Positions 4,201 through 9,712 of a DNA stretch of 41,457 nt are shown piece by piece. The notes beneath the pieces are model-generated. The model saw nothing but the letters and a program-made list of their open reading frames with translations. It made no database searches and was not told the DNA's origin. Each line of letters opens with the position of its first letter. Positions within the stretch are counted from its first letter, which is position 1. The stretch is from a virus. A program made the position numbers and the translations under genes. The stretch covers positions 1 to 41,457 of IMG/VR virus record IMGVR_UViG_3300045988_094226; one strand, given 5' to 3'.

Positions 4201-4224
4201 TGGTTTAGAGAGGAGGTGAACCAT

Positions 4225-4434
4225 ATGACCGCTTACATAAAAGTAAAAGGGTATCAGGTTGTCAGTGTTATTAATATTGAAAAAATCGAGTATACTGATC
4301 CTATTTCCGAGTCATGTTCAGAAATTACCGACTTCAAGAAACTTCGGATTTATCCTGGATATCAATATGTTTTTGTCGGAAACGCTATCCTTCATGTCTT
4401 AGGCGAAAATATTGAATGTGTTTGGTTTGAGTAA
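4225..4434 (+). CDS. Small hypothetical protein (70 aa) driven by cassette copy 2
   Basis: ORF track trimmed to MTAYIKVKG. RBS GAGAGGAGGTGA. Confidence 0.4.
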   Translation: MTAYIKVKGYQVVSVINIEKIEYTDPISESCSEITDFKKLRIYPGYQYVFVGNAILHVLGENIECVWFE

Positions 4435-4609: not shown

Positions 4610-4822
4610 TTAGGATACTCTTTCGCTAAAAAAAATAGCGTCTATCTCTTCCGGCTTTAATTTATACCTATCTTTTATGAAAAGTATTTCTGCCTGTCGA
4701 AAATCTGCCCCACCGTTGATTTTTAGATTTAATCGAGATAGGCTTATCCCTAACGCATTCGCTAAATCTTTTTGACTATCTCCATATTTCATCATTTCTG
4801 CCCTCATCAATGGTTTATTCAT
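4610..4822 (-). CDS. Cro-like XRE-family HTH regulator
   Basis: SQKDLANALGISLSRLNLKINGG HTH. Divergent from the repressor. RBS GAGGTGA. Confidence 0.6.
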   Translation of the reverse strand: MNKPLMRAEMMKYGDSQKDLANALGISLSRLNLKINGGADFRQAEILFIKDRYKLKPEEIDAIFFSERVS

Positions 4823-4947
4823 TTTTTCACCTCGCTTTCTTTCAGTGTCTTTTCAGGACACCTTGATTGTATATCCGTTTTTGTGTCTTGTCAAGATACT
4901 TTTTCTTGTTTTCAAAAATTTTTATGGTATAATCAAGACACGAAAGG
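4823..4947. promoter_or_regulatory. Divergent cI/cro-type switch region with operators
   Basis: Perfect palindrome TCTTGTCAAGA at 4886-4896 and half-site TCAAGACAC at 4934-4942. Extended -10 TGgTATAAT at 4925-4933 for the repressor. Confidence 0.5.
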
Positions 4948-5406
4948 ATGGTTACGCATATGGAATTTAAAGATATCCTTTATACTTTAAGAAAAAAGAA
5001 TAAACTAACGCAGCAGGAAGTTGCAGAATATGTAGGGTTGCAAAAAGCAGCTATATACAAATATGAACACGGCTTGCTTGTTAATCCCAAACGATCATTG
5101 ATTTCAAAATTGGCTAAGTTATTTCAAGTTACCCCATCGTATATGATGGGATTAACCGATGATGATAAGTCTGCTCATGTGTCTCTTGGTCCATCCCTTA
5201 CCAAAAAGGACGAAAAAGACATCCAAAAAAGACTATCCGATATCTTAAATGATATGGACAGTCAGGATGCTATCGCCATGTATAACGGCGGAGAACCGAT
5301 GGATCCGGAAACACGGGAATACATGAAAGCATCTCTTGAAAATGCTCTCCGCTTTGCAAAATTAAAAGCAAAAGAAAAATTTACACCAAAAAAACACCGC
5401 AAATAA
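4948..5406 (+). CDS. XRE-family repressor (cI/ImmR-like, no S24 peptidase domain)
   Basis: KLTQQEVAEYVGLQKAAIYKYEHG HTH. Followed by an ImmA-type protease, as in ImmR/ImmA systems. Confidence 0.7.
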   Translation: MVTHMEFKDILYTLRKKNKLTQQEVAEYVGLQKAAIYKYEHGLLVNPKRSLISKLAKLFQVTPSYMMGLTDDDKSAHVSLGPSLTKKDEKDIQKRLSDILNDMDSQDAIAMYNGGEPMDPETREYMKASLENALRFAKLKAKEKFTPKKHRK

Positions 5407-5417
5407 AGGAATGTATT

Positions 5418-5861
5418 ATGGACATAAAGAAATTCGCGAATAAACTTGCCGCTGCTCACGATACAAGAAACCCTTTTCGTATAGCATCTGAAAACCATAT
5501 CCATATCTTATATGAAGAATTAGGTGAAAATTTAGGGTATTTCAGTCAGCTGTTTCGTATTAAAACGATACGGATAAATGGTCATGCCGATCCTTTTCTC
5601 TATCCGTTTATCTGTGCTCACGAACTCGGTCATGCGCTGCTTCATCCGCATGCCGGCACTCATGCTTTCAATAGAAATTCTTTTATTGCTAATTGCAAAA
5701 TTGAAAAAGAAGCGAATCAATTTGCCGTAGAATTGCTATTCCCTGATGAGTTGATAGCTGGTCATCCGGAAATAGACATTTATAATCTGGCGCGGACATT
5801 CGGTATTCCATATCAACTGGTTTATCTTAAGTCCATTTCTTACAGAGCACGTCATTTATAA
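5418..5861 (+). CDS. ImmA/IrrE-family zinc metallopeptidase (anti-repressor protease)
   Basis: HELGHALLH HEXXH motif. Gene order repressor then protease. Confidence 0.7.
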   Translation: MDIKKFANKLAAAHDTRNPFRIASENHIHILYEELGENLGYFSQLFRIKTIRINGHADPFLYPFICAHELGHALLHPHAGTHAFNRNSFIANCKIEKEANQFAVELLFPDELIAGHPEIDIYNLARTFGIPYQLVYLKSISYRARHL

Positions 5862-5875
5862 AAAGGGGATTAATT

Positions 5876-6532
5876 ATGAAAAGGTTCTTGGCTGGTGTGT
5901 TTGTAATATCTGTTATTCTTTTATCCGGATGTGGGGGTGCAGGTAACAGCAGTAATAAAAACAGTAAATCTGTCACTTATTCCACAGAACAGAAATTTGC
6001 AGCGAACACCGAAATCTTGAATATTCTTCCTACAATGAGAAAAACCCATGATGATGTTGACAAAATGGACATATATACCAGTTTGGCAACTGAATCATAC
6101 CCTCCCCAAGATGGTCTATATTGGAAATTAATTGTAAATAAAGGCTATGTCTTCGAATATTTTACAATCGTTAATTTTACAAGTGGTATTGAATGGGTAT
6201 TTTGGGATGATGTCGTTTTTTCCACAAATGAAGGGAATTGGACATATCACATCGGGTCTTTTGCCGGACAGTCAGGAAATGGGAAACGCACTCAAATAGT
6301 TATGGGCGGTAAGTATGAATTTTTAAATGTCTCTATTGATAAAATTGCTCCAGGCTTGGAAAAATTGATAAAAGGAACTAACCCGATTATTCGTTTAAGA
6401 GGTAAGGAATTTGTTTATGACATTAAACTCACGGATAATGATATGAATATAATAAATACTGCTATGTATACCTATGAACAATTAAAAATTACAGGAAACA
6501 AGATTTCTTTTGATAATACTGAAAAGAATTAA
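5876..6532 (+). CDS. Lipoprotein (candidate superinfection-exclusion protein)
   Basis: Signal peptide with lipobox LLSGC. Sits in the lysogeny module between ImmA and int. Confidence 0.55.
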   Translation: MKRFLAGVFVISVILLSGCGGAGNSSNKNSKSVTYSTEQKFAANTEILNILPTMRKTHDDVDKMDIYTSLATESYPPQDGLYWKLIVNKGYVFEYFTIVNFTSGIEWVFWDDVVFSTNEGNWTYHIGSFAGQSGNGKRTQIVMGGKYEFLNVSIDKIAPGLEKLIKGTNPIIRLRGKEFVYDIKLTDNDMNIINTAMYTYEQLKITGNKISFDNTEKN

Positions 6533-6552
6533 TTGGTAATCGGAGGGATACT

Positions 6553-7257
6553 ATGGACTTTAAAGATCCTAAAAACAAAGTATACTTACAAAAAGCCATT
6601 TCATCTCTGTCAAAAGACTATTCCAACATGTTAATTTCAATGACAAATCAAGATGATTCTAATTACAAGAGGGCAGCTCTTCTTTACTACTGGCTACGCG
6701 ACTATAGGAACTATGTCAAAAATGAACCAAAATTCAATTCTGTTTATACCCCGCCTTTCCGACGTGGGAACATAGCAAATATTAATTTCGGCTTTAATTT
6801 GGGCAGCGAACTCGGCGGACTGCACTATGCAATAGTTATTTCTGACAGTAGACCTACCAATCCCATGCTGATAGTCGCTCCTATGACTTCATTTAAACCA
6901 AGCCACCAATTAAATGATTGTGAAATATTTATAGACAACCAACTATTTTTACAATTGAAAGGGAAACAAGATGCCCTTGTACAAACATTAAAACATCAGC
7001 GTGCTACTTCCATCGATAGTGAATCGGATGATATCAATTCCAAATTAGATCAACTCCAAAAAATAAAAAAACAAATTCAAAAACTGAAAAATGGAAGTAT
7101 AATCAATATCAGTCAAATTTGTGCAATAAGTAAAATGCGGGTGATTGATCCGCAAAGTCCCCTTGATGTATTTTATAATATTTCAGTTTCATCTGACGTA
7201 TTAGATAAAATAGACAATAAAATAAAACAGTTTTTTATGAATCCTAACAAACCTTGA
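6553..7257 (+). CDS. Extended PemK/MazF-fold protein (234 aa) with a 65-aa N-terminal extension and a roughly 55-aa coiled-coil insertion. No adjacent antitoxin
   Basis: FRRGNIANINFGFNLGSELGGLHYAIVISDSRPTNPMLIVAPMTS matches the MazF/PemK core (rGdi..v.f....GsE..g.RPalV.s.......v.v.P.Ts). Confidence 0.5.
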   Translation: MDFKDPKNKVYLQKAISSLSKDYSNMLISMTNQDDSNYKRAALLYYWLRDYRNYVKNEPKFNSVYTPPFRRGNIANINFGFNLGSELGGLHYAIVISDSRPTNPMLIVAPMTSFKPSHQLNDCEIFIDNQLFLQLKGKQDALVQTLKHQRATSIDSESDDINSKLDQLQKIKKQIQKLKNGSIINISQICAISKMRVIDPQSPLDVFYNISVSSDVLDKIDNKIKQFFMNPNKP

Positions 7258-7260
7258 CAT

Positions 7261-7289
7261 TTGACATGAATCTTCGCTTCTGATACAAT
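7261..7289 (+). promoter_or_regulatory. Consensus promoter TTGACA-17-TACAAT
   Basis: 7261-7266 and 7284-7289, exact 17-nt spacer. Confidence 0.5.
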
Positions 7290-7295
7290 GTGGTC

Positions 7296-7405
7296 ACAAC
7301 TTGAGGAGTACTCCTCAAATAAATTATGGACTTTGCGGCATGCCCGCACTACCGTAGAAAGACCTCGGCCTTGTATCATTTAGGTGCGAGGTCTTTCACG
7401 TTTCA
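7296..7405 (+). ncRNA. Candidate structured sRNA or int leader. It has a perfect 18-bp palindromic hairpin (7301-7318), a GCGGCATGCCCGC hairpin (7336-7348), and a terminator-like hairpin (7358-7396) with a T-rich tail
   Basis: Promoter directly upstream. No ORF. Three consecutive stem-loops between the MazF-like gene and int. Confidence 0.3.
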
Positions 7406-7464
7406 CTTCTTTTTAATCATAGATGATAACCTGTGACTGCTCTACACTATATTGAGGTGATCTT

Positions 7465-8541
7465 ATGAAACAATATAAAAGAGGTTCTTTAATCTACGAT
7501 AAACTCCATGACAGTTATCGTGCTTTTATCATGATCAACGGAAAAAGATATTCTAAGCGTTTTAAGAAAAAAGACGATGCTATGGATTGGATGTCACGGC
7601 AGAAAATAGCAGAGCGTGACGGTAATTTCGTTGAACCATCAGATATGCTTGTCGGTCAGTGGCTTTTGTATTTCCTTTCTACTTATAAAAAAGATACTGT
7701 CAGAGCCAGTACATACGAACGATATCTCTATCTTGCCGCAAAGATTGAGCCTATTTCAAAAATCCCTCTCCAGTCTTGTACCGTGTCTCATGTACAAGAA
7801 TTGTTAAATAGTTTAACTCCGGACTGTTCCCGTAAAGTTCATGTTCTTTTACATGCTGCATTTCAGCAAGCTGTAGATCTAAGTATTATCCATAATAATA
7901 TCGTCCGTCTTTCAAAAGCCAAAAAGATTGTCCGTGATGAACCCGGCATATTTAACAAAAATGAAATTAACAAAATTCTTTCTTACGCAAAAGATAAAAT
8001 CTCCGCTTTCTATCCCATTTTCCTTTTAGCGGCTCATACCGGCATGCGGAGAGGTGAAGTGCTTGGTTTGCGTTGGAAAGACGTAAATTTGAAGAATAGC
8101 ACCGTTACCATCCGCCAGCAATTGCAGCGTGTCGGCAGTGACATTACATTTCAGCCTCCGAAAACAAAATCAGGAAAAAGAAAAATCTCAATCCCCGCTA
8201 CGGTCACCGCTGCACTGCAGGAATTGAGAAATAACGAAAAGACAATAGATATCAAGCAAGAGACGCTTGTTTTCAGAAATGCAAATAATAACCCTATCCG
8301 CCCTGAGGCGTTGGAGCGTGCATGGAAGAAAGCAATTACACAATGCGAACTGCCTTATAGAAATTTCCATTGTTTGCGGCATACCCACGCCACTTTATTA
8401 TTAGCCGCCGGTATTCCGATCATTGAAGTGTCCCGCCGGTTAGGTCATGCGAGAGTAAGCCACACATTAGATCTGTATGGCCATGCTATCCCAAGTTTTG
8501 ATGATCGGATTATAGAAAAAATTAATCAGATTTATGGTTAA
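7465..8541 (+). CDS. int: Tyrosine site-specific integrase
   Basis: Phage integrase C-terminal motifs including RHTHATLLLAAG, HARVSHT and LDLYGH (R..H..Y). Adjacent to attP. Confidence 0.9.
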   Translation: MKQYKRGSLIYDKLHDSYRAFIMINGKRYSKRFKKKDDAMDWMSRQKIAERDGNFVEPSDMLVGQWLLYFLSTYKKDTVRASTYERYLYLAAKIEPISKIPLQSCTVSHVQELLNSLTPDCSRKVHVLLHAAFQQAVDLSIIHNNIVRLSKAKKIVRDEPGIFNKNEINKILSYAKDKISAFYPIFLLAAHTGMRRGEVLGLRWKDVNLKNSTVTIRQQLQRVGSDITFQPPKTKSGKRKISIPATVTAALQELRNNEKTIDIKQETLVFRNANNNPIRPEALERAWKKAITQCELPYRNFHCLRHTHATLLLAAGIPIIEVSRRLGHARVSHTLDLYGHAIPSFDDRIIEKINQIYG

Positions 8542-8840
8542 AAAGTGGAGCAGTTTGTGGAGCAATCTCACCCATATTTTGCTCCACTTTGCCATTTTTA
8601 GCCCTTTTTAGCCTCACAAATAAATCCGCCAGACTATTGATTTTATCGATTAAATCACGCTTTTTAAAAATAATTCTTCCCATATAAAACAGAACTCCGG
8701 AACCAGGTGCGAGGGTTCGAATCCCTCTAGGCGCTCCATTTATTTTTATCAGTATTTATAGGACATTTTCAAATACATACTCATCAATAAACATCAGAAA
8801 ACAAAGAAAGTGGAGCAGTTTGTGGAGCAGTTTACATCAA
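8542..8840. mobile_element. attP region. A tRNA 3'-end fragment (T-arm GGTTCGAATCC plus acceptor and CCA) forms the core, flanked by arm-type repeats GTGGAGCA (8545, 8558, 8810, 8822 direct; 8580 inverted)
   Basis: Read directly. Only the 3' about 45 nt of a tRNA are present (8693-8738). Repeats are positioned symmetrically around it, immediately downstream of int. Confidence 0.65.
8693..8738 (+). tRNA. Partial tRNA (3' portion only: T-stem/loop GAGGGTTCGAATCCCTC, acceptor 3' strand, discriminator, CCA). A phage-borne copy that would reconstitute the host tRNA after integration
   Basis: Canonical T-loop and CCA end. No matching 5' acceptor strand (GCGCCTA) upstream, so this is not a complete gene. 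Confidence 0.55.
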
Positions 8841-8884: not shown

Positions 8885-9607
8885 TTATATTGCATCTAAT
8901 AAACGACGGTGAGCAACTTCTATATTCCCTGGATCTTTCTCTATCCCAATGTATTTTCTATTACAATGTTTAGCCGCGACTAGTGTCGTTCCGCTCCCGG
9001 CAAATGGGTCTAATATCAGGCTTCCATCTGGTACTATTTTTACTAATTGCTCCATCAGCGGTGTCGGTTTACCTGTTAAATGGAATTTATCTGTTAATTT
9101 TACAGGGAAATGATAACATCCGGGATATGGGCCATCGTGAATAGCTTTGTGACATTTCCCTTTTGTTCCCCATGCTATATATTCACATTGGTGACGAAAA
9201 TATCCCTTGTGTGGTGCCCTCGCGCTATTACCTTTATCCCATGAAATAATTCCCCGCCATATTAACTCGCCGATTTGTAATACATCAGTTGCTGCAGGAA
9301 GCTGCCGCCAGTCCGTAAACATCAAGAAGTATCCGTTCGGTTTTAAAATTCTTTGACATTCGGATATCCATAAATTACACCAATGCATCCAACTTCGCTG
9401 ATCTTTTGTGTCACCCCAGAATGTCGGTCGATGAATTATTTTATTTCCGCTTTGCTCATATTTTTTTACTGGATCTTTTTGTCGCTCCGCCATTGTTGCA
9501 CCGCCGGAACTGTACGGCGGATCTGTAATCACCGCGTCCACTGAACAATCATCAAATGTTTTTAATATTGGTAAGCAATCTCCGCAGTATATTTTGTTGA
9601 TTTCCAT
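8885..9607 (-). CDS. N6-adenine/N4-cytosine DNA methyltransferase (beta class)
   Basis: DPPY catalytic motif (ITDPPYSSGG) before the C-terminal FAGSGTT AdoMet motif. Start trimmed to MEINKIY with RBS GGAGGG. Confidence 0.8.
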   Translation of the reverse strand: MEINKIYCGDCLPILKTFDDCSVDAVITDPPYSSGGATMAERQKDPVKKYEQSGNKIIHRPTFWGDTKDQRSWMHWCNLWISECQRILKPNGYFLMFTDWRQLPAATDVLQIGELIWRGIISWDKGNSARAPHKGYFRHQCEYIAWGTKGKCHKAIHDGPYPGCYHFPVKLTDKFHLTGKPTPLMEQLVKIVPDGSLILDPFAGSGTTLVAAKHCNRKYIGIEKDPGNIEVAHRRLLDAI

Positions 9608-9675
9608 TGTATCCCTCCTTATTTTTATTGTAGAACTAACGTTCTGTTTTCGCAATAAAAACTTAGAGTACATAC

Positions 9676-9712
9676 TCCCGAAATTTAAAAAGAGCGATAT
9701 CATTATCGCTCT
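9676..9712 (-). terminator. Intrinsic terminator after the 256-aa gene
   Basis: 9-bp stem AGAGCGATA/TATCGCTCT followed by T5 on the minus strand. Confidence 0.5.

Follow-up and report, generated by a model that had tools for sequence, protein, structure and literature searches.

The question raised by this locus is how a viral protein of the MazF/PemK endoribonuclease type could be held in check when no gene for a protein antitoxin lies beside it. The protein is encoded within a 41,457-nucleotide stretch of viral DNA (IMG/VR record IMGVR_UViG_3300045988_094226, positions 1 to 41,457; hereafter the window), and the DNA between this MazF-like gene and the tyrosine integrase gene (int) appears to specify a small RNA. 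A sequence-only reading of the window had proposed that this downstream element could be a small-RNA antitoxin, an attenuator of int or the terminator of the toxin operon; judged from sequence comparisons, the first of the three fits best. The locus is here read as a toxin-antitoxin pair of type III-like character, in which the toxin is a true MazF-family member and the gene order is inverted, a proposal for which we judge the case to be evenly balanced. The fold and family of the protein, the conserved linkage of gene and element, the covariation of the RNA, the promoter and terminator architecture and the lack of a conserved protein partner are established.

The Pfam PemK_toxin model matched the protein in two stretches, the first beginning at residue 70 (E=3.5e-10; score 40.5 bits, cut-off 23.1). 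An AlphaFold2 (AF2) model built from 28 homologues (pLDDT 89.4, pTM 0.81) showed helices at residues 6-31 and 35-60, forming an N-terminal hairpin, helices at 130-152 and 158-177, forming an insertion, and a C-terminal helix, with the beta core between them. The best structural matches were the MazF proteins of S. aureus and M. tuberculosis, while a Foldseek comparison with viral models returned only unnamed 'PemK-like' proteins. The MazF/PemK core, the 65-aa N-terminal extension and the insertion of roughly 55 aa announced by the sequence-only reading were therefore all found, the insertion measuring about 50 aa. The phrog_1412 profile aligned practically end to end (E=3.6e-40; residues 19-230 on profile positions 8-236 of 237), indicating that the long architecture is a family trait. 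In the family alignment, the N-terminal extension was conserved to the same degree as the core, with W47, L48, D50, Y51, E58 and F61 invariant (YYWLRDY motif), and the inserted hairpin differed in length between relatives and was present in all of them; S182, R196 and P200 were also invariant.

A search over 1.84 billion representatives placed at least 363 clusters (50% identity) in this family at E≤1e-30; the count rose to 974 at 1e-10 and to 1642 at 1e-3. Each of the best 150 was full-length (230-350 aa). The best family matches listed measured 193-353 aa, nearly all of them 230-330 aa, and each carried the two helical-hairpin additions. According to the species-representative genomes the hosts are Bacillota, including Clostridia, Lachnospiraceae, Oscillospiraceae, Veillonellaceae, Anaerococcus and others, and the gene was also found in the GenBank Streptococcus phages Javan166 and phi30c. 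For the locus comparisons, 80 IMG/VR viral loci plus the two GenBank phages and 80 bacterial-genome loci were sampled and labelled with L-numbers. A sub-family of shorter relatives from Clostridia metagenome-assembled genomes (L147, L151 and L153-L161) aligned only from about residue 36.

No protein antitoxin was conserved among the upstream open reading frames (ORFs) of 122 loci, which fell into 57 clusters of secreted proteins and lipoproteins, repressors, ImmA, zinc-ribbon proteins and others. The upstream gene of the window encodes a lipoprotein, and none of the small ORFs in the downstream stretch was conserved among relatives, in agreement with the earlier remark that the gene has no MazE-like neighbour. 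A small protein encoded within the element was rejected on the same ground.

The gene is followed by a promoter, two hairpins with A-rich tails and an intrinsic terminator (Table 1). The promoter, already recognised as TTGACA-17-TACAAT from the sequence alone, was the top-scoring site in a 4.5-kb scan, and a second TTGACA (7254-7259) includes the stop codon of the MazF-like gene. The predicted RNA (7296-7414) had a minimum free energy (MFE) of -41.9 kcal/mol (z=-5.0), which none of 200 shuffled sequences equalled. Folding recovered the three hairpins described earlier, the last being the terminator-like stem with its T-tract, which is interrupted. The first two hairpins belong to units that, across the family, consist of a 4-7-bp hairpin and an unpaired A-rich stretch of about 10-18 nt, whose end is commonly (A)AGAC; the motif AAGAC occurred in 28 of 69 RNAs against 6.5 expected, and the two tails of the window end in ...TGGAC and ...GAAAGAC. 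The 3' arm of the terminator contains one bulged G and one G-U pair, and the 10-nt loop is the reason why a simple terminator scan missed the stem at 7357-7397. In Rfam searches at E≤10 the window element matched no family, the sole overlap being a minus-strand terminator-like hit (E=3.1), and in 20 related loci no family was found for it at the gathering score.

The predicted structure was examined for covariation in an alignment of 28 distinct sequences and 18 base pairs derived from a covariance model (CM); the alignment, restricted to class 1, had been fitted to the structure. In this alignment 95.2% of the cells were paired, compared with 83.0 ± 0.8 after partner shuffling (0/500 as high); double-sided changes were found at 13 pairs, compared with 8.7 ± 1.2, and the covariation score was 0.472, compared with 0.234 (0/500). 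Sliding of the 3' partners lowered pairing to 34-54%, and all seven core pairs of the terminator helix covaried. Manual counts and the CM alignment were used because MAFFT alone mis-registers the short hairpins, after which RNAalifold detects the terminator only. In a manual alignment of 24 loci from both classes, 100% pairing holds by construction, since the stems were picked as helices, and the informative feature is their diversity at fixed positions between conserved flanks: 13 different fully complementary stem sequences were counted for each small hairpin, and pairing dropped to 60% with partners shuffled among sequences. Folding of the gene-strand RNA was more favourable than that of the reverse complement for 69 of 75 non-redundant RNAs (p=4e-10), as expected if G-U pairs are tolerated on the gene strand. 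A single hairpin, GYGCCTATAGGGCA, followed by ATTAAAGAAGAC-like tails, was very widespread in the genome loci (e.g. L087, L091, L106, L116 and L163), with the covarying variants GCCGTTTAGCGG and GCCATTAGTGGC; it may be the ancestral unit of the RNA family.

The conservation of the pair in related prophages, a check named by the sequence-only reading, gave a positive answer: nearly all related loci carry the promoter, hairpin units and terminator behind the gene, even where protein identity falls to about 27-35%. In the viral loci the gene was followed by a sigma-70 promoter with 10-12 of 12 matches, often overlapping the stop codon, then by one or two GC hairpins with A-rich tails and a T-tract terminator. 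The promoter of the relatives lies about 0-50 nt from the stop codon, compared with an equivalent site at 7 of 150 control gene ends. Among the bacterial genomes, whose proteins are 27-38% identical to that of the window, a strict automatic test (promoter of at least 10/12 and terminator of -8 kcal/mol or below with a T-run) was passed by 58 of the 79 analysable species-representative genomes, compared with 4 of 150 ends of other genes at these loci, and several further bacterial loci qualified on visual inspection. A covariance model (R1) seeded with 13 class-1 sequences and searched over both strands of 583 kb matched the position 3' of the gene, on the gene's strand, with E=1e-9 to 1e-17. 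It also recovered unseeded, differently shaped elements weakly at the expected position, and its minus-strand matches were palindromic terminators only. When viral contigs were searched in the reverse direction with a hairpin-and-tail pattern, 8 of 15 matches had the gene about 80 nt upstream as judged by HMM, and 2 lay at cut contig ends with a promoter and a terminator, one of which (L164) also shows a family-like coding end; the other 5 were inside ORFs, had neither promoter nor terminator, and look like chance matches.

These comparisons bear on the most ordinary explanation, in which the terminator of one operon stands by chance next to the promoter of the following gene and the hairpins are fortuitous. 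Promoters and terminators are indeed common between genes, and the 4.5-kb scan contained 19 promoter-like sites against 16.6 expected from shuffling. However, the promoter precedes the terminator, thus forming a closed short transcription unit, and the contrast between distant genomes and control gene ends in the strict test concerns precisely this order; moreover, the hairpins covary and the CM finds the element specifically. This explanation is therefore the least probable of those considered and has hardly any chance of being correct. The role of plain terminator of the toxin operon offered by the sequence-only reading does not, taken alone, account for the conserved promoter in front of the terminator.

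A role of the element in transcription of the neighbouring genes deserves more weight. Of 97 unique next downstream genes, 24 encode tyrosine integrases and 10 large serine recombinases, the remainder being cargo (NYN, Uma2 and others) or host genes. Recombinases are thus the commonest downstream genes (34/97), and in the window no sigma-70-like site was detected between the terminator and the int start codon (7398-7464); int is probably expressed from transcripts that run past the terminator. In addition, the -10 box and the nucleotides after it are complementary to the 5' arm and loop of the terminator or to the stretch just before it, in the window as well as in L009, L012, L017, L019, L032, L050, L052, L071, L079 and others. 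Across loci, the 5' strand of this long-range helix comprises the -10 box and the 6-10 nt after it, sometimes with 4 nt before it. It pairs with the terminator's 5' arm and loop in the window and in class 1, whereas its partner in other classes lies immediately behind the last tail and often reaches into the terminator arm. The summed duplex energy over 22 loci was -274 kcal/mol, compared with -148 ± 10 with shuffled leaders, and the MFE structure of 7270-7385 is the long-range helix enclosing both hairpins. Judging from the inferred start, the internally initiated transcript lacks the 5' strand, so that formation of the helix is confined to RNA that reads through from the toxin gene. In loci where helix and terminator overlap, the former would be expected to act as an antiterminator, and in the window a link between read-through and int is plausible.

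The element could accordingly be regarded as a transcription insulator, that is, a cis-acting punctuation at the end of the lysogeny operon whose RNA is a by-product and whose -10-box helix serves as antiterminator for int or more distal genes, the protein being controlled otherwise, for example through autoinhibition by its helical additions. The significant complementarity and its presence in the MFE structure, the promoter-less int, the frequency of recombinases and the strong conservation of the protein extensions are all compatible with this explanation. It does not explain the conserved hairpin and (A)AGAC units, their tandem duplication or their restriction to this gene family. The element also persists at loci whose next gene is convergent (30 of 148) or belongs to the host, and helix and terminator do not overlap in many loci. 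Since the next genes are variable or convergent, the element is not generally a leader of int, and attenuation of int, the second role offered by the sequence-only reading, fails as a general one because the element persists where int is absent. On balance a purely transcriptional role seems rather unlikely.

The same complementarity would allow a base-pairing mechanism resembling type I systems, in which the 3' segment of the small RNA pairs in trans with the 3' untranslated region of the toxin mRNA (the -10/+10 stretch) and leads to decay by RNase III. The small RNA does offer an unpaired segment complementary to one found only in the long transcript. Nevertheless, a copy of the complementary segment is present in cis on the long transcript and should out-compete an RNA acting in trans, the pairing would lie far from the ribosome-binding site of the toxin gene, and the hairpin units and tails would be left without a role. 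We consider this mechanism very unlikely.

A type III-like pair would account most simply for all the features, and the following mechanism can be proposed. The module would consist of a protein and an RNA at the integrase-proximal end of temperate Bacillota phages. The enlarged MazF/PemK endoribonuclease would be made from the lysogeny operon, together with the repressor, ImmA and the lipoprotein, and an abundant RNA of about 100 nt would be made from its own near-consensus sigma-70 promoter abutting the stop codon, the strong separate promoter supplying an excess of RNA. The RNA would bind the protein and block its active site in the manner of type III repeat RNAs: the hairpins could dock on the family-specific helical additions, the A-rich tails could sit in the RNase groove as pseudo-substrates, and two units could serve the two sites of a MazF-type dimer. 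As long as the RNA, which is probably labile, remained in excess, the nuclease would stay inactive; a collapse of transcription through superinfection or prophage loss would let the RNA decay, and the freed nuclease would halt growth, resulting in abortive infection or addiction. Transcripts of the toxin gene would read on towards int by means of the long-range helix, thus reaching the promoter-less int of the window, whereas transcripts from the internal promoter, lacking the 5' strand, would terminate and yield the small RNA. Since the module sits with cargo expressed in the lysogen, its role may be abortive infection directed at superinfecting phages, or addiction, and the module is probably anti-phage. 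In its most specific form, the proposal describes a fourth, structurally distinct type III-like family, with a MazF nuclease bearing two helical hairpins, a downstream RNA antidote of one or two units with its own promoter, and a -10 box that doubles as antiterminator strand; this we hold more tentatively, as something short of an even chance.

The criteria for type III systems and their order of promoter, repeats, terminator and toxin were described by Blower et al. 2012 (PMC3401426), and such classical loci gain their RNA excess from repeats placed before a leaky terminator (PMC3401426). The pair described here resembles ToxIN, AbiQ/antiQ, CptIN and TenpIN in its short non-coding RNA partner with units of about 30 nt, constitutive-looking promoter and intrinsic terminator, in the lack of a protein antitoxin, in carriage by mobile elements and in the Kid/MazF-like fold of the protein, and it shares with CptIN an origin in gut Firmicutes. 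In L060 and L079 the two units are tandem repeats with 96-100% identity. Their periods, 30-33 and 28 nt, come near the length of the ToxI unit, 36 nt (PMC3401426). A further likeness lies at T112-S113-x-K115, the same motif as the active-site Thr52-Ser53-x-Lys55 of ToxN listed in a review (PMC5086642); the likeness is at the sequence level, with S113 and K115 invariant, and may be taken as a hint of an active site of the ToxN kind.

Several points weigh against the type III-like reading. The gene order, with the toxin first and then promoter, units and terminator, is the reverse of that in all type III systems described so far. The RNA is transcribed from a promoter of its own and comprises only one or two units, which are predicted to be plain hairpins, unlike the pseudoknots of type III RNAs. 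The two units of the window were not detectable as repeats in a direct-repeat search, being alike in form only, and in other sub-families one conserved hairpin (the widespread GYGCCTATAGGGCA or a covarying variant) follows a variable one. The T-tract of the window terminator (ACGTTTCACTTCTTTTT) is T-rich but interrupted, and the sub-family of shorter relatives has no promoter after the gene. No useful match for the protein was found in NCBIfam or PADLOC 2.0 (none at E≤1 in the latter). Linkage cannot by itself prove a physical interaction, since adjacent features are co-inherited. Finally, judged from its residues, RNase activity of the protein is not assured, because an invariant His, H91, followed by an invariant Tyr, takes the place of the MazF catalytic Arg (Arg25 of the B. 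subtilis and Arg29 of the E. coli protein) in the profile alignment, and the position of the catalytic Thr (Thr48/Thr52) corresponds to T112, which varies between T, S, K, M and R next to the invariant S113. The window protein, moreover, falls outside the ToxN/AbiQ, CptN and TenpN families. Gene order and toxin family thus depart from those published for the class, and the tandem repeats agree with it only in part, so that the pair, although it would work like a type III system, was not filed with the known families of that type.

The altered catalytic positions open the way to a further alternative, in which the protein is a non-toxic RNA-binding or RNA-processing partner with changed catalysis and the ribonucleoprotein regulates phage or host transcripts (lysogeny, int/xis) or acts as a sensor, so that the RNA is no antidote. 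The invariant His, the strict linkage to the RNA and the location inside the lysogeny module are in line with this idea, as is the label of the PHROG family, 'antitoxin mazE-like' and not toxin, a label that is unverified. On the other hand, the MazF loop GSE.GG, retained in the family alignment, together with S113, K115 and R196, all invariant or nearly so, fits a working site with His as the general acid/base. The gene also occupies a prophage-accessory slot beside lipoprotein genes and, in relatives, beside Abi_2, NYN and Uma2 genes, a position typical of defence cargo. This alternative appears unlikely, and we rank it after the purely transcriptional one.

The proposed type III-like pair was also compared with other systems. 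It shares with type II MazEF/PemIK (Kid-Kis) the PemK_toxin domain, the GSE.GG loop, the beta-barrel core and the C-terminal helix. However, it has two helical hairpins and a conserved downstream RNA, and it was not classified as type II because it has no MazE/PemI gene, lacks the catalytic Arg (replaced by His) and is twice the usual size of about 110 aa. The MazF-like pair is consequently filed apart from ToxIN, CptIN, TenpIN and MazEF. The Ltp/Sie lipoproteins of dairy streptococcal and lactococcal phages, which we take to be prophage accessory ('moron') defence genes in the repressor-integrase slot, resemble the locus in genomic slot, lysogeny-side expression and lipoprotein neighbours. 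They are membrane proteins that block DNA entry, whereas the window protein has a cytoplasmic nuclease fold and an RNA partner. CapRel(SJ46), a fused, autoinhibited toxin that is not known to have a conserved partner RNA, likewise joins conserved additional domains to its toxin domain and has no protein antitoxin apart from these, but the linkage to an RNA is the strongest signal in the present family. A literature search yielded no description of this protein-RNA pair, although subscription journals were mostly outside the search and a prior description is possible. A catalogue of structured RNAs from microbiomes (PMC8040213) lists integrase-associated motifs and, 5' of ToxN, candidate ToxI RNAs, but PemK and MazF do not figure in it.

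If the small RNA does serve as antidote, the family would connect type II MazEF with the type III systems, and a canonical MazF core would prove able to switch from a protein to an RNA inhibitor. A widespread family of at least 363 clusters, distributed in Clostridia, Negativicutes, streptococci and their phages, would then join the few RNA-neutralised toxins, and hundreds of 'orphan PemK-like' genes of gut and oral prophages would be explained; a likely abortive-infection module encoded by prophages would also be gained. The small RNA itself constitutes a compact, covarying and unannotated RNA family. Should the long-range helix act as an antiterminator, termination would be made dependent on where transcription starts, which would represent a design principle and give insight into int expression.

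Table 1. Coordinates of the MazF-like gene, the downstream RNA element and neighbouring features in the window.
Feature	Position	Strand	Basis or remark
cI-like helix-turn-helix repressor	4948-5406	+	lysogeny module
ImmA/IrrE metallopeptidase	5418-5861	+	lysogeny module
Lipoprotein, 218 aa, signal peptide and Cys lipobox	5876-6532	+	directly 5' of MazF-like gene
Ribosome-binding site GGAGGG	6542-6547	+	sequence; 6 nt 5' of MazF-like ATG
MazF-like gene, 234 aa, ATG start	6553-7257	+	ORF table; putative endoribonuclease toxin
N-terminal extension, helical hairpin, aa 1-65	6553-6747	+	AF2 and alignment
MazF core part 1, aa 66-127, with GSELGGLHY (H91) and PMTSFK (S113, K115)	6748-6933	+	profile alignment to B. 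subtilis-type MazF structures, conservation
Inserted helical hairpin, aa 128-180	6934-7092	+	AF2 and alignment
MazF core part 2 and C-terminal helix, aa 181-234	7093-7254	+	alignment, profile alignment, AF2
Small-RNA promoter: -35 TTGACA 7261-7266, 17-nt spacer, TG 7281-7282, -10 TACAAT 7284-7289	7261-7289	+	11/12 matches
Long-range helix, 5' strand: extended -10 box and next 6 nt	7281-7295	+	pairs with 7361-7378 (terminator 5' arm and loop); duplex -15.3 kcal/mol
Predicted small RNA, ~105-119 nt, inferred start ~7 nt past -10 box	7296-7414	+	CM match 7296-7404, 63.4 bits, E=2e-9
Unit 1: hairpin TTGAGGA-GTAC-TCCTCAA 7301-7318 and A-rich tail ATAAATTATGGAC, GAC end 7329-7331	7301-7331	+	folding, covariation
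Unit 2: hairpin TGCGG-CATGC-CCGCA 7334-7348 and tail CTACCGTAGAAAGAC, GAC end 7361-7363	7334-7363	+	folding, covariation
Intrinsic terminator: 5' arm 7357-7371, loop 7372-7381, 3' arm 7382-7397, tail ACGTTTCACTTCTTTTT	7357-7414	+	folding, covariation
Tyrosine integrase (int)	7465-8541	+	Pfam Phage_integrase E=1.9e-25

The MazF-like gene is the last of a lysogeny module of Gram-positive type. It starts 20 nt past the lipoprotein stop codon and is therefore likely co-transcribed with the lysogeny operon. No family match for the lipoprotein was found in library searches. Genes for secreted proteins or lipoproteins fill the same upstream slot in several relatives and are possible superinfection-exclusion genes. 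A megablast search of 4900-8700 against GenBank phages gave no match.

Downstream of int, a tRNA 3'-end fragment (GGTGCGAGGGTTCGAATCCCTCTAGGCGCTCCA, 8703-8737) is flanked by perfect 23-nt direct repeats (AAAGTGGAGCAGTTTGTGGAGCA, 8542-8564 and 8807-8829), with no complete tRNA gene nearby; the fragment and repeats are probably the attP core with the arm-type sites of the integrase. Since this attP-like region lies 3' of int, the hairpins of the element were rejected as attP or Int arm sites, an idea also contradicted by the fact that the element stays with the MazF-like gene where other genes intervene. The first gene past the attP-like region (8885-9703, minus strand) encodes a DNA methyltransferase-like protein with a DPPY motif.

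Some related loci showed additional features. In the sub-family of shorter relatives, a hairpin, CTCCCGTCTTACTAC-AAAA-GTAGTAGAGGG, and an AT-rich stretch occupy the place of the promoter. L012 contains three copies of the RNA (4785-4890, 6205-6310 and 6847-6954). The second keeps the promoter and about 50 nt of the toxin-gene 3' end behind an inserted NYN-domain gene (5256-6086), and the third, followed by an Abi_2 gene (7350-8270), lacks the promoter. The extra copies were rejected as independent elements and look like recombination scars or orphan copies, the second being regarded as a scar because of the toxin-gene relic it retains. In Javan166 (L001), positions 4214-4300 of the minus strand matched Rfam RF02589 (S. 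pyogenes Spy779816) with 76 bits, above the gathering score. This match, absent from the window, lies just 5' of int and is convergent with the terminator of the element, and it was rejected as the element's own family, being a separate convergent RNA. In the viral contig L050, a match to the type II hammerhead ribozyme was found on the minus strand (1199-1266; 40.2 bits against a gathering score of 37), about 3.5 kb 5' of the MazF-like gene.

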